A stretch of DNA of 64,000 bases from an uncultured Gammaproteobacteria bacterium. GTDB taxonomy: Bacteria; Patescibacteriota; Patescibacteriia; S139-126. The number at the start of each line of letters is the position of its first letter. Within the stretch, counting starts at the first letter, position 1. The notes under the pieces are model-generated. The model saw only the letters and a program-made list of their open reading frames with translations, was not told the DNA's origin and searched no databases. The stretch spans positions 156,826 to 220,825 of the forward strand of contig CAZINS010000001.1 in assembly GCA_964540695.1 (NCBI GenBank), in the 5' to 3' direction. Below, piece after piece: positions 15,924 through 38,694 of the stretch. The position numbers and the translations under genes were made by a program.

Positions 15924-17051
15924 TCAGATTTTACTTAAAAAGATATGTTTCCTAATCTCAATCATTAATTGTAAATAAAATTCCAAATTATTTAATGTTG
16001 CCAAACGCAAAGCAGTTGGTTCGCCACTTCTAAATAAGTGATGTAAATAAGCTTTAGAAACAGACTTTAATTCTCTTGTTTTAGTGATGGGATTTAGTAG
16101 AGCTAAATCACGTCTATACTTTTTATTTTCAATATTAATAGTAGTATAAAAATCTTTCCTTTTTAAATTTTTATGTCGCCAAATATACAACCTACCATGT
16201 CGTGCTTCTCTAGTCGGAATTACGCAATCAAACATATCTACCCCTCTAATAACTGCTTCTAAAATATTGGTTGGCTTACCTACTCCCATCAAATATCTAG
16301 GTTTATTATTTGGTAAATAAGGTACAACTTCATCTAATACTTGATACATTTGTTTAGCGGTTTCACCAACTGCTAAACCGCCAATAGCGTAACCAGAAAA
16401 ATCTAGATTAACCAACTCCTTGGCACAATACTTTCTTAAATCAGAAAATACACTACCCTGGACAATACCAAAAACCAATGGCTTTTTTAAATGAGAGTGA
16501 TTTTTATCAAGCCACTGTTTTGCTTTTTTTGCCCAAGCTAAAGTAATCTTAACATCTGCTTTGGCTTGTTCGTAGGTAGCAGGATTGGCAGTACAAACAT
16601 CCAATACCATTTGTATGTCACTACCGATTATATTTTGTATTTGCAATGCTTTGACTGGACTTAAAAATTGACTACTACCATCAAGATGGGATTTAAAAAT
16701 TACTTTATTTTTTTCTATTTTTACTAAATTATTTTTTTGTTGTTTATTGCCAGCTAATGAAAAAATTTGATAACCACCGGAATCAGTCAAAATTGGTTTA
16801 TCCCAATTCATAAAATTATGTAAGCCTTTGCTTTGTTTTAATATTTTAATTCCAGGTCGTAAAAATAAATGATAAGTATTAGCCAGTAATATATCAGCTG
16901 ACAATTTATCTAAATCTTCACTAATTAATGTTTTAATCACCCCTTGAGTGGCAACTGGCATAAAAACAGGAGTTCTAATTTCCCCATGTTTAGCTTTAAT
17001 TAAACCTAATCGAGCTTGACTTTTTTTTGACTTCTTATAAAGTTTATACAT
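15924..17051 (-). CDS. tgt: Queuine tRNA-ribosyltransferase (tRNA-guanine transglycosylase)
   Basis: 375 aa, catalytic LTDSGGYQ motif and TIM-barrel length typical of Tgt. Confidence 0.8.
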   Translation of the reverse strand: MYKLYKKSKKSQARLGLIKAKHGEIRTPVFMPVATQGVIKTLISEDLDKLSADILLANTYHLFLRPGIKILKQSKGLHNFMNWDKPILTDSGGYQIFSLAGNKQQKNNLVKIEKNKVIFKSHLDGSSQFLSPVKALQIQNIIGSDIQMVLDVCTANPATYEQAKADVKITLAWAKKAKQWLDKNHSHLKKPLVFGIVQGSVFSDLRKYCAKELVNLDFSGYAIGGLAVGETAKQMYQVLDEVVPYLPNNKPRYLMGVGKPTNILEAVIRGVDMFDCVIPTREARHGRLYIWRHKNLKRKDFYTTINIENKKYRRDLALLNPITKTRELKSVSKAYLHHLFRSGEPTALRLATLNNLEFYLQLMIEIRKHIFLSKI

Positions 17052-26842: not shown

Positions 26843-27218
26843 GGGGATGTCATCTATTCGCTAAGAAAGTAGAGACGTATGTTCAAGCTGAGCGGCAACT
26901 CATTAAACTACCACAACTATAAGTGCCAATACACTTATGAGCAAAATTAGGAACGCTTTTGCGCTACCTAACTTTGCACTTGCTGTTGCCTAATTAGGCC
27001 ACAGCCATCGCTGAAGTCTGGCTCCAAGATTTCTTAAGCGGTGTCATAACTGGAGCTTGAACGCCGATACGCTGACTATTGTCGTTTGAAATATTGCTCA
27101 GCACCACCAAAAAGTTTTCGCCTGATTTTATCTTTTTGGTTTACCAATCAGGCTAAGTTTGTAAATCATGCGTTAAAACTTTTTTACCACGTGGGTGCAA
27201 AGCCCACCATCTCCACCA
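26843..27218 (+). ncRNA. ssrA: tmRNA (SsrA), one-piece
   Basis: 5' GGGGAUG pairs with 3' CAUCUCC, including a G3:U wobble (alanine identity element). T-arm GUGGG-UGCAAAG-CCCAC, discriminator A, encoded CCA at 27216-27218. Internal tag ORF ends ...PNFALAVA-UAA at 26991-26993. Immediately downstream of smpB. Confidence 0.8.
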
Positions 27219-27379
27219 AACTAAGCTTGGTAATTGGGGAGCTTAACTTCCCACCATCAAATTTTTAATTTTATAATTTTTAATTTTATAATTTTTAAAC
27301 TACTCTTCATATATAAGTACTCTGGCCACAAATACTTAAATTTTATATAATATAATTATAATCATTAACCCTCAAATTT

Positions 27380-36295: not shown

Positions 36296-37501
36296 TTATG
36301 GTAACAATTTTTGAATAATATCATTTCTTTGTTTCATACTTAAAGCGTGTAAAACAACTACTATCAAATCGTCTTTTTTTAATACCACTGTGCGTTGGGC
36401 TTCAACTAAAAAACCAGTTTTAACTGCCTGGGGATTGAACGTATGTAAACTATAATTTCGATCAATTATTTTTACTAATCTATTCTGACCATTTATATCA
36501 ACAATTTGAGCTGTATAATCTTTAACCGCACTGGGCGCTGCTATATCTGATTTAGCAAAAGCAGTTTGTCCAATTACTGCCATTTCTTTAGCGGTGGTAA
36601 CATTATGAGCATCGAGTCCGGTCATTTCAAACCATAAAGTTTTCTCGAGTCCTAAATCTTTGGCTTTTTGATTCATAGCGGTAACAAATTCAACCCGCGT
36701 TAAACCGCTGTTATCCACCAAAGCGATGGTAGCTTGATTGGAAGAAGCAATCAACATTGCTAACCACAAATCATAAAATGACAATTTATCACCCACTTTT
36801 AAATCAACCTCGCTAGTTGTATCTTCACCAACCAAACTTTTAGGATAATCAAGCTGATCTTGAGTGATGGTAATTGTTTTTTGCCAATTGGGACTGGCAT
36901 CAAGTAAAACAAGAGCAGTCATTAATTTAGTTAAACTAGCTGGTGGCAGTATTGTATCGGCATTGTAGCTTTGACTAAAATTTTTACCATCATAACGCAC
37001 ATAAGCCACATCATTGAAGGTAGTATCATGAATTATCTGTTTAGAGTTGGTTCTAATTTGTCGTAAATTGTCATTAGTTATTCCCAGTCCGAATTGACGT
37101 AACAAATTGAAAGCTGCCTCCCGGTCGGGAAAATAATAACGTAAACCATCAACTGGATTAACATACCAGGCTTCACCATGACTTTCTACTTGCAGTAAAA
37201 TCCTCCCCTGCAAACGCTTGGTCAATTTTTGGTCACCTATTTCACCTTTGCTAGTGGGAATCTTAGCTAAATCACGGTTTGAGATACCAAGTCCCAAGGA
37301 ACGCATGATAGCAAAAGCTTCATCACCATCACGCAAATAATATCTTTCCTGACTAACTGGGTCTACATACCAAGCTCGGCCATAACTTTCCACTTGCAAC
37401 AAAATCCGACCTGACAATCTACTGGCTAAACTATCAGCCGCTTTTAACTGATATACAGGTAAAAAAGTAAAAACTAAAATTAAATATAATATTTTCTTCA
37501 T
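36296..37501 (-). CDS. D-alanyl-D-alanine carboxypeptidase (serine PBP5-like) with N-terminal tandem-duplicated about 55 aa domain
   Basis: SxxK (ASLTKLM), SxN (ASSNQAT), KTG (VKTGFL). The N-terminus has two copies of RILLQVES(Y/H)G(R/E)AWYV(D/N)PV...YY...FGLGI(S/T)N. Confidence 0.75.
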   Translation of the reverse strand: MKKILYLILVFTFLPVYQLKAADSLASRLSGRILLQVESYGRAWYVDPVSQERYYLRDGDEAFAIMRSLGLGISNRDLAKIPTSKGEIGDQKLTKRLQGRILLQVESHGEAWYVNPVDGLRYYFPDREAAFNLLRQFGLGITNDNLRQIRTNSKQIIHDTTFNDVAYVRYDGKNFSQSYNADTILPPASLTKLMTALVLLDASPNWQKTITITQDQLDYPKSLVGEDTTSEVDLKVGDKLSFYDLWLAMLIASSNQATIALVDNSGLTRVEFVTAMNQKAKDLGLEKTLWFEMTGLDAHNVTTAKEMAVIGQTAFAKSDIAAPSAVKDYTAQIVDINGQNRLVKIIDRNYSLHTFNPQAVKTGFLVEAQRTVVLKKDDLIVVVLHALSMKQRNDIIQKLLP

Positions 37502-37740
37502 AGAAATTAATTATAACAAAAAATCACCTAATTGGCGATTTAATTATAATGGCGGGGCCGAATTAATAAGGGACTTCCGCCTCACCGCGCCTTCGTAAAG
37601 CGGCGCGGTTCGTTGCCCGGGACAGCGTCCAGTCCTACGCTCGCTCGGACTGTCCGACATTCGGCTTGCTCATAATTTCTTCCGAAATTATTCGCGCCTC
37701 ACTCCTGTCCGTTCGAGTCACTTTTGACTCACAAATAAAA

Positions 37741-37770
37741 AATCTCTTGACAAAGTCAAAAGATTTTTTA
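37741..37770 (-). terminator. Rho-independent terminator downstream of tRNA-Asp
   Basis: On the minus strand: AATCTTTTGAC TTT GTCAAGAGATT followed by TTTTTATTT. Confidence 0.6.
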
Positions 37771-37847
37771 TGGCGGGGCCGAAGGGACTCGAACCCTCGA
37801 CCTCCTGCGTGACAGGCAGGCGTTCTAACCAACTGAACTACGACCCC
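37771..37847 (-). tRNA. tRNA-Asp (anticodon GUC), CCA encoded
   Basis: Minus-strand sequence GGGGTCGTAGTTCAGTTGGTTAGAACGCCTGCCTGTCACGCAGGAGGTCGAGGGTTCGAGTCCCTTCGGCCCCGCCA folds as a cloverleaf: D-stem GTTC/GAAC, anticodon stem CCTGC/GCAGG with loop CTGTCAC, T-loop TTCGAGT. Confidence 0.9.
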
Positions 37848-37896
37848 GTAATTAATAAAAGACAATAAAACTATTATACTCTAACTAATAAATAAA

Positions 37897-38694
37897 TCAA
37901 GACTTTACTGTCTGACGATTAAATTTAAAATATAGAATAATTACTATTAAAATAGATAACCCGCTAAAAATAATTGGCCAACGGATATCAAATATCATCA
38001 GCGCTGGATCCAAACGAATAAACTCTAAAACTAGTCGCAATAAAGAATATAGTCCAAGATAAAGCAAAGTGATTTGGCTGTCAAACCTTTTTTTCTTAAG
38101 TAGCCAGAATAAAACTATAAAAATAACTAAATTACCAATTGACTCATACAAAAAAGTCGGGTGAAAATAAGAGTAATCTATAAATTCAGGCAGACGGTTT
38201 TTCACAGCAATAAAAATTCCCCAAGGCAAATTTGTAGGTAATCCGTATAATTCCTGGTTAAAATAATTTCCCCACCGACCAATGGCTTGTCCCAAAGGTA
38301 ATACTAAACAAATAGCATCAGTCAAAGTCCATAATGACCTTTGCCATTTTTTACTATACAACCACAATACTACCAGCCCTCCGAGCCAAGCCCCGTGAAT
38401 AGCCAGTCCTCCTTGCCAAATTTTTATAATCTGCCCAGGGTTAGTAAAATAAAAAGCAGGTTCTACCAGTAATACCTCATAAATCCTAGCCCCCAAAATA
38501 CCACCAATCACCAACCAGAATAATAAATCCCAAACTTGTTCACTGGTCAAAGAAAAAACTTTGGCTTTTTTTAGTAAAACAAAAAAAGCAGCTAAAATAC
38601 TTACCAGCATCAATAAACCATACCAATGTATTTGGATAAAACCAAAATTGACTAAAATCGGTGCAGGACTAAAAGTGTGAAACCAGGAAAACAT
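37897..38694 (-). CDS. lgt: Prolipoprotein diacylglyceryl transferase
   Basis: 265 aa, conserved HWYGLLM and GGILGARIYE signature, multi-TM. Confidence 0.8.
   Translation of the reverse strand: MFSWFHTFSPAPILVNFGFIQIHWYGLLMLVSILAAFFVLLKKAKVFSLTSEQVWDLLFWLVIGGILGARIYEVLLVEPAFYFTNPGQIIKIWQGGLAIHGAWLGGLVVLWLYSKKWQRSLWTLTDAICLVLPLGQAIGRWGNYFNQELYGLPTNLPWGIFIAVKNRLPEFIDYSYFHPTFLYESIGNLVIFIVLFWLLKKKRFDSQITLLYLGLYSLLRLVLEFIRLDPALMIFDIRWPIIFSGLSILIVIILYFKFNRQTVKS

Follow-up and report, generated by a model that had tools for sequence, protein, structure and literature searches.

A 64,000-nt stretch of DNA from an uncultured bacterium of the Patescibacteria (candidate phyla radiation, CPR), hereafter the window, contains a segment of ~220 bp (positions 37550-37770, minus strand) that follows an intact tRNA-Asp gene and ends in a second copy of the 3΄ end of that gene. 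We read this segment as a mini-insert lying between the new 3΄ end of the tRNA gene and its displaced old one. On balance, and by a narrow preference, we consider it to be the footprint of site-specific recombination at tRNA-Asp, that is, an integrase-less insert that is either a remnant or non-autonomous. An intact tRNA gene accompanied downstream by a co-oriented fragment of its own 3΄ end is the accepted signature of integration into tRNA genes, in which the gene is restored and the old end is displaced, and damaged fragments are known at such sites (PMC4383910). The segment carries this signature as defined in that study.

The tRNA-Asp gene (anticodon GTC; 37771..37847, minus strand) was identified by ARAGORN and scored 72.4 bits against the Rfam tRNA model. 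Its final 19 nt, AGTCCCTTCGGCCCCGCCA, form the proximal copy of the repeat. The distal copy lies at 37550..37575, where the minus strand, read from 37575 down to 37550, is AGTCCCTTATTAATTCGGCCCCGCCA, or AGTCCCTT-ATTAAT-TCGGCCCCGCCA. Both the 8-mer AGTCCCTT and the 12-mer TCGGCCCCGCCA are exact copies of sequence within the tRNA-Asp 3΄ end. Because a single T of the tRNA belongs to both blocks, the interruption between them is 7 nt long, and the displaced end consists of AGTCCCT, the interruption TATTAAT and TCGGCCCCGCCA. The duplication of the T-loop/acceptor region claimed in an earlier reading of the window, made from the sequence only and without database searches (the sequence-only reading), is thus borne out, and the 6-nt insertion that it described is corrected to 7 nt. 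The duplicated stretch corresponds to tRNA positions 58-76, from the T-loop through CCA, and the interruption falls exactly at the junction of the T-stem and the acceptor stem. The displaced fragment is on the same strand as the tRNA, 195 nt downstream of it, with a copy-to-copy distance of 221 bp.

This duplication is not due to chance. The split repeat pattern was found in none of 100 dinucleotide shuffles of the window, and the 12-mer, with at most one mismatch, was seen twice in the window against an expectation of 0.04. In ~850 kb of fetched Patescibacteria DNA with 26 tRNA genes, a comparable duplication of a gene end was present only at tRNA-Asp of this locus. The identity is sharply bounded; in the window and in the counterpart from a related genome (L003, described below), it is confined to tRNA positions 57/58-76, and upstream of this block the resemblance to the tRNA is at the level of shuffled sequences (P = 0.57 and 0.73). 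The last 65 nt of the segment seemed to mimic tRNA positions 22-76 in local alignments and in a covariance model, as if it were a decayed copy of tRNA-Asp. We rejected this interpretation because the similarity drops to these same shuffle levels once the 19-20-mer is removed. Likewise, neither ARAGORN nor the Rfam tRNA model detected a tRNA within the segment.

The position of the repeat is consistent with integration. Since nothing upstream of it resembles the tRNA, the block starts in the T-loop, and a start in the T-loop together with an end at CCA matches the T-stem-region class of attachment sites. The 7-nt interruption stands at the T/acceptor junction, where damage from a crossover would be expected. 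An intrinsic terminator with an 8-bp stem and a T-run (T2; 37511..37541, minus strand) begins 9 nt past the distal CCA, and this distance is 9-12 nt in the window and L003; the terminator is conserved in L003 and in a further relative, L005 (GCA_964620905.1). It therefore stands at a normal distance past the displaced end, as would be the case after the original tRNA gene.

A sequence of events of the following kind would produce this arrangement. A small foreign DNA would recombine with the tRNA gene in its T-loop/acceptor region and supply its own last 19-20 nt of the tRNA, completing a working gene with the cassette behind it. The original 3΄ end would be pushed ~220 bp downstream, still just ahead of the old terminator T2. 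The product, which has no recombinase left, would be what remains of a larger island or else a mini-element that is non-autonomous and relies on a recombinase encoded elsewhere. We infer from this layout that a recombinase made the insert, that T2 was the original terminator of the tRNA gene and that genes within the insert were lost or never present. The same holds for the class of the recombinase, for the side from which each hairpin came, and for the nature of the body as cargo (e.g. a small RNA) or as foreign DNA that has yet to approach the AT-richness of the host. The repeat with its limits and orientation, the varying occupancy in relatives and the other integration events at this tRNA are seen directly in the sequences.

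We compared the locus with those of related genomes. Searches with the neighboring genes recovered eight related species with protein identities of 77-89%, and scans for close relatives yielded two from a genome collection and one from a metagenome collection, within a thinly sampled clade. The best matches of the proteins flanking the segment were from metagenome-assembled genomes (MAGs) labelled Buchananbacteria, Komeilibacteria and Paceibacter. The sequence-only reading had pointed to related genomes as the means of judging a scar or miniature element, and the variable occupancy that we observed among them favors such an origin.

The closest counterpart in layout was L003 (GCA_964493305.1), in which a promoter, tRNA-Asp, a T1-like hairpin (T1 being the hairpin directly 3΄ of the tRNA in the window), a small hairpin, ~130 nt of further sequence, a distal copy of the tRNA end and T2 follow one another as in the window. 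Its distal copy is an uninterrupted 20 nt, GAGTCCCTTCGGCCCCGCCA. Identity between the two genomes is ~88% in the promoter, 100% in the tRNA and ~80% in T2, whereas neither MAFFT nor BLASTN with 7-nt words aligned the L003 interior with that of the window, and a covariance model of the window cassette, run with filters off, did not match it either. Between dsbA and lgt, these genomes have an ordinary spacer whose mean identity is 78%; because it aligns so readily, neutral drift cannot account for the lost similarity. By sequence comparison, the two interiors are accordingly taken to be different DNA that was replaced and not merely diverged.

Other relatives carry other contents. In L005/L168, a 0.8 kb insert that has one 237-amino acid (aa) open reading frame (ORF) and no integrase comes after the intact tRNA-Asp. 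Beyond this insert lies a decayed fragment running from the T-loop to CCA, GTTAGTCC...GTCCCGCCA (L005:1636-1870 = L168:5424-5660), and then a T1-like hairpin and an unrelated segment of 62% GC that ends in AAGCACCA twice. The cassette is missing in five relatives (L002, L006, L166, L167 and L169), which have the unit of promoter, tRNA-Asp and hairpin in the opposite orientation. Indeed, this unit is flipped between lgt and the serine hydrolase gene among close relatives, with the last codons of lgt differing accordingly, and a neighbor-joining tree of a flanking protein implies repeated changes of its orientation.

The closest relative (L001 and L176, from one sample) also has an inverted tRNA unit, and in it a 9 kb island (L176:1456-10379, with L175:1420-1470 and L001:1-31) is bracketed by the intact tRNA and a displaced tRNA 3΄ fragment of 9-10 nt beside a T1-like hairpin. 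The island encodes a SpoVG-like protein, an HTH_17 protein, an N6/N4 methyltransferase, a ResIII helicase and a 505-aa large serine recombinase (Resolvase, Recombinase and Zn_ribbon_recom domains), whose ORF runs into the tRNA. Several independent displaced fragments occur at this site, one of them with a recombinase attached, and they show that the clade actively uses this tRNA for attachment; we regard its flank as a recombination hot spot. According to a statement of 2014, the recombinases known to target tRNA genes were all of the tyrosine type (PMC4383910), and the locus has therefore yielded a combination, a large serine recombinase on an island integrated into a tRNA gene, that was stated to be unknown at that time.

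The same genome contains a further insert, of ~100 bp, between tRNA-Asp and the old promoter (L001:31-134). It is bounded by a direct repeat of 13-16 nt of the tRNA 5΄ end, AACTACGACCCCGTAA, and contains two hairpins rich in GC along with a stretch that looks like a new promoter; in L002 and L166, the site is uninterrupted. By eye, a stretch of the L001 insert matches the L003 cassette at 14 of 16 nt (CCAAGGCTTCGGAGGA versus CCCAGGCTTTGGAGGA). BLASTN (word size 7), MAFFT and cmsearch detected no homology when the three cassettes and this insert were compared with one another.

The tRNA end also serves as a candidate attachment site far from this clade. In IMG/VR, the tRNA 3΄ 19-mer was found only in a high-GC phage contig unrelated to the lineage (L085:4700-5400), in an attP-like (phage attachment site) copy of the 3΄ 47 nt of tRNA-Asp whose final 25 nt are identical to the CPR tRNA; this copy adjoins a 412-aa ORF that is, by its size, a putative integrase. 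This phage site demonstrates the principle only. Identical tRNA 3΄ ends in very distant hosts would let unrelated elements use one target.

A second type of tRNA-derived sequence lies nearer the gene, and a local rearrangement without any recombinase might account for it. Directly 3΄ of the tRNA stands T1, an A-tract, an AT-rich hairpin with 17-nt arms (94% complementary) and a T-tract (37735..37771, with no strand assigned), which looks like a two-way terminator. Hairpins related to T1 occur 3΄ of tRNA-Asp in L003 and of the displaced fragment in L175. Across T1, the T-loop/T-stem sequence GTTCGAGTCCCTT (37782-37794) is mirrored by an inverted copy of the T-loop and the 3΄ strand of the T-stem, AAGTGACTCGAAC (37711..37723, minus strand), which matches the antisense of the tRNA at 12 of 13 nt and lies 51 nt past the tRNA (P = 0.04 compared with shuffled sequences). 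The two copies are symmetric around the hairpin and extend it to a 31-nt palindrome of 71% complementarity. L003 retains a 9-nt inverted motif, GGACTCGAA (9/9 nt), at the equivalent site (+54), although its surroundings differ, and this motif is the only interior sequence common to the two cassettes.

In such a rearrangement, the T1 palindrome would provoke snap-back or template-switch copying, and later deletions and filler would leave partial inverted and direct copies of the tRNA. The mirror-symmetric inverted copy across T1 (12/13 nt in the window and 9/9 in L003) and the 71% complementarity of the arms over 31 nt speak for this process, as do the repeated flips of the tRNA unit in the clade, which it would also explain. 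We nevertheless judge it unlikely. Beyond the 9-13-mer, the cassette bears no resemblance to antisense tRNA (when we considered the cassette as an antisense tRNA copy, significance was limited to the 9-13-nt T-loop motif), and the process accounts neither for the direct copy, with its exact limits at the T-loop and CCA and a terminator behind it, nor for the unrelated GC-rich DNA between the copies, nor for the other displaced fragments at tRNA-Asp, one of which has a recombinase.

We then return to site-specific integration and the composition of the inserted body. The GC content of the window is 33.5%, and that of positions 37550-37649 is 0.65, compared with 0.17-0.45 in the surroundings. 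The 80-nt maximum of 0.70 is the highest in the entire 64 kb (mean 0.335), above the tRNA (0.625) and the transfer-messenger RNA (tmRNA) gene. The GC-rich, hairpin-rich body of ~135 nt (37576..37710, minus strand) belongs to no Rfam family and has no similarity to phage or plasmid sequences. At its 5΄ side, the cassette edge is formed by a small hairpin, H1 (GAGTCA AAAG TGACTC; 37715..37730, minus strand), present in both the minimum-free-energy and the centroid folds. Within the body, an 8-bp GC hairpin, ACCGCGCC/GGCGCGGT, is formed by 37584-37591 and 37602-37609, and an 8-bp AU hairpin with a GGAA loop, ATAATTTC/GAAATTAT, by 37672-37679 and 37684-37691. We computed folding energies and compared them with those of dinucleotide shuffles, obtaining z = -3.7 for the tRNA strand and -3.35 for the opposite strand. 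Because both strands fold about equally, the structure could serve as RNA or as DNA. The corresponding values for the bodies of L003 and L005 were -4.7 and -0.24. These results agree with the sequence-only reading, which had described a GC-rich segment with several stable hairpins beside tRNA-Asp.

The strong folds raise the question of whether the cassette is a functional small RNA, transcribed from the tRNA-Asp promoter by read-through of T1 and ended at T2; the insert might have carried it as cargo. Processing or stability (RNase P/Z, CCA) would then be the role of its tRNA-derived 3΄ end, and the anti-T-loop motif would pair with the T-arm of tRNA-Asp or its precursor. The body is the top GC island of the window in a genome of 33% GC, with counterparts of 62-64% GC at the equivalent place in L003 and L005; the window and L003 bodies fold beyond shuffles, which a plain scar leaves unexplained; and a proper terminator follows the CCA. 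The anti-T-loop motif of 9-13 nt and the 19-20-mer are the sole sequences common to both cassettes, the segment is fixed, with no variation among four assemblies, and the 3΄ end of L003 can fold as a small hairpin like an acceptor and T-stem, with a free GCCA. Several observations oppose this possibility. No promoter lies between T1 and the body, although the organism uses canonical promoters, and Rfam offers no matching family at a threshold as lax as E = 10. Neither sequence nor structure in common could be detected among the bodies of the window, L003 and L005; that of L005 is no more structured than shuffles, and the hairpins, folding on either strand, could equally act as DNA. Furthermore, five close relatives lack the cassette altogether.

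The sequence-only reading had also proposed, as an alternative to a scar, a small structured RNA that ends in a mimic of a tRNA acceptor. Such a mimic needs a 5΄ strand for its acceptor 3΄ strand, and no partner of the form GGGG(U/C)CG occurs anywhere in the cassette. The 3΄ end of the window cassette pairs instead as GGCGG/CCGCC, with the 7-nt interruption separating the T-stem from the acceptor and breaking the mimic, and L003 folds otherwise; a tRNA-like structure or acceptor-stem mimic is therefore not seen in the cassette. Nor did the comparison reveal a conserved RNA with compensatory substitutions, since the L003 interior is unalignable and the only homologues found, among three cassette-bearing species, are identical copies from the same species. 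In the light of this evidence, we consider a functional small RNA a possible but doubtful explanation, and the scar or miniature element that the same reading had put first is the part of its interpretation that we retain.

A related alternative is that the segment is an orphan guide RNA, composed of a scaffold and a 20-nt 3΄ guide to the tRNA-Asp gene and left behind by an element that has vanished. The segment offers a structured scaffold of ~160 nt, an exact 19-20-nt counterpart of the tRNA 3΄ end and a terminator, and homing guides to tRNA-adjacent sites are documented: delocalized crRNAs (CRISPR RNAs) direct CRISPR-associated transposons to tRNA genes (PMC11656645). In having an RNA-like structured scaffold followed by ~20 nt of tRNA-gene sequence, the segment resembles both these crRNAs (PMC11656645) and the omega-RNAs of TnpB; it differs in having neither effector nor transposase, neither repeat nor transposon ends. 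There is no TnpB, Cas12 or Tn7-like gene nearby, both neighbors being housekeeping genes, no CRISPR-like repeat, and no match to omega-RNA-type families of Rfam. In addition, the guide of the window is broken after 8 nt, and the scaffolds of the window and L003 are unrelated. We regard this origin as very improbable.

Searches for the identity of the segment gave consistently negative results. In a scan of the whole window with Rfam 15 at the gathering threshold, only the tRNA and tmRNA passed, and at thresholds relaxed to E = 10 nothing credible was found on a 451-nt slice containing the segment or on its counterparts in L003 and L005. The Rfam search that the sequence-only reading had suggested thus revealed no RNA family, and, as noted above, a covariance model built from the segment missed the L003 interior. 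By eye, we considered a signal recognition particle RNA (on account of a GGAA tetraloop and AGCA), RNase P RNA, 6S RNA and a tmRNA-like molecule, none of which fits or has a model match, as well as domain V of group II introns and self-cleaving ribozymes, which do not fit and have no model match either. A small protein was also rejected. The interval has no wholly contained ORF longer than 38 aa, its only two ORFs (38 and 12 aa) have no conserved counterpart in L003, and a hairpin encloses the start of the shorter one. Tn7-like ends, a casposon-type target duplication, mini-elements of the IS200/605 type and an integron attC site were considered, and the 19-20-nt repeat fits none of them; sequence inspection of the segment revealed neither terminal TGT...ACA nor terminal inverted repeats nor a GTTRRRY core.

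No foreign source was apparent among 50,697 phage and 72,556 plasmid records, and exact-word scans of IMG/VR with segment sequence returned nothing or one chance-level 18-mer. A multi-copy miniature repeat of the MITE or REP kind would have several copies per genome; the 64 kb window contains no second copy of the cassette. Logan contigs of two species pass unbroken through the cassette, yet they break in the tRNA.

We examined whether the arrangement could be an artefact of assembly, an alternative raised by the sequence-only reading, by comparing the window with a MAG from NCBI (GCA_013328955.1), a JGI metagenome contig (3300009868) and a Logan contig (SRR23375769). In all four assemblies, the interval from the tRNA to the downstream gene, including the 7-nt interruption, is base-identical except for one T in the T-run of T2. 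Because the three further assemblies come from separate projects, an artefact is excluded, and the segment is non-polymorphic in the sampled population.

Several observations weigh against the integration footprint, and because of them our confidence in it is no higher than moderate. No recombinase was found by Pfam in 20 mid-size ORFs of the window or in the neighboring lgt and serine hydrolase genes, as the sequence-only reading had noted of an integrase. The insert of ~220 bp is ten times below the 2 kb limit for calling islands. The predicted empty site, with tRNA-Asp directly followed by T2, was seen in no relative, and the variable occupancy described above does not include it. T1, beside the intact tRNA, resembles the hairpin beside the displaced fragment in L175, so that it may have come with the insert or belong to the host. 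The distal copies have no substitutions in two lineages, whereas that of L005 is decayed. The window and L003 share an architecture of T1, small hairpin, inverted T-loop (+51/+54), hairpin-rich body and distal copy; independent decay of two large islands would not yield this shared size and architecture. The bodies match the GC-richness of tRNA in three AT-rich genomes, and GC-rich bodies with strong folds in the window and L003 suggest selection on structure or a very recent arrival. Taken together, these points suggest either that a defined small unit was acquired recently and repeatedly or that such a unit is under selection.

A further reading, which we put forward tentatively and with low confidence, is that the window and L003 hold two members of a family of integrase-less, non-coding cassettes of ~200 bp, specific for the T-loop/acceptor junction of tRNA-Asp and swapped by a recombinase encoded elsewhere. 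Such cassettes would combine conserved ends, namely the terminator-like hairpin, the 20-nt direct copy and the core of the inverted T-loop, with a GC-rich hairpin body, probably a small RNA, that can be exchanged. If true, they would be the smallest tRNA-targeting mobile units known and a non-coding analogue of integron cassettes.

Among known systems, the locus is most readily compared with islands and prophages integrated in tRNA genes (PMC4383910). It shares with them the intact tRNA and co-oriented 3΄ fragment, a block running from the T-loop to CCA, alternative contents in relatives (L003, L005 and L176, and five without) and older, decayed fragments further out in L005, as in tandem arrays. 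It differs in its size of ~220 bp, in having neither integrase nor ORF, and in its interior of GC-rich hairpins only. The Islander catalogue, which is built on the same signature of a tRNA gene with a displaced fragment, comprises islands of 2-200 kb (PMC4383910). As regards the features used there, the segment has an intact tRNA with a fragment that is co-oriented, downstream and derived from the 3΄ end, as well as alternative states at the locus; it has no integrase inside the interval, and its length lies outside the 2-200 kb range. Standard island finders, which require an integrase and at least 2 kb, would miss it.

Smaller mobile structures without their own recombinase are also described. 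Cis-mobilizable elements (CIMEs), from work on the integrative and conjugative elements of Streptococcus thermophilus, are stretches of DNA flanked by attachment (att) sites that lack a recombination module; they are several kb long and carry genes. The segment resembles CIMEs and island remnants in being flanked by att repeats and free of an integrase, so that it could move only by a recombinase acting in trans or by accretion with an incoming element. It differs from them in that two species carry non-coding units of the same size and layout, which suggests a defined mini-unit rather than random decay. By our analysis, it appears closest to att-flanked, integrase-less remnants of the CIME type, although it is far smaller and wholly non-coding.

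Small RNAs derived from tRNA trailers provide another comparison. The 3΄ external transcribed spacer (3΄ETS) RNAs, such as 3΄ETS-leuZ of E. coli, are short, unstructured and located before the terminator. The segment likewise follows a tRNA immediately and on its strand, with transcription that would start at the tRNA promoter; it differs in that a terminator-like hairpin intervenes, in its length of ~185 nt and high degree of structure, and in ending in a copy of the tRNA end.

Even if the segment were only a scar, it would be a clean, small-scale case of tRNA genes as recombination hot spots in the CPR, whose mobile elements are poorly charted. Non-coding units of the same size with unrelated interiors in two species could also point to exchange of very small cassettes, perhaps of small-RNA genes, at a tRNA site.

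The genes around the segment are all on the minus strand. Upstream, lgt (37897-38694) ends in a stop codon that overlaps the -35 hexamer of the tRNA-Asp promoter (37873..37900, minus strand), which consists of TTGATT, a 16-nt spacer and TATAAT and matches the consensus at 10 of 12 positions. Downstream, a serine hydrolase/DD-carboxypeptidase gene (36296-37501, minus strand) has a promoter of its own at 37510..37538 on the minus strand, with a TCCGCA-type match reported as TCGCCA, a 17-nt spacer and TATAAT with TG, which bounds the feature. Its -10 hexamer is conserved in all relatives, including those without the cassette. We therefore rejected the possibility that the segment is a leader or riboswitch of this gene, as the gene retains its -10 hexamer at an equal distance without the cassette and T2 intervenes.

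Two further observations concern RNA genes of the window. A gene for queuine tRNA-ribosyltransferase (TGT) lies at 15924-17051; tRNA-Asp(GUC) is among the substrates of TGT, and there is no apparent link to the segment. Directly after the tmRNA gene (26843-27218), a hairpin, GGGGAGCTTAACTTCCC, occurs at 27219-27270 and is followed by CCCACCATC, which repeats 9 nt of the tmRNA 3΄ region, GCCCACCATCTCCACCA. This repeat could be due to chance, part of a terminator, or another small displaced fragment.

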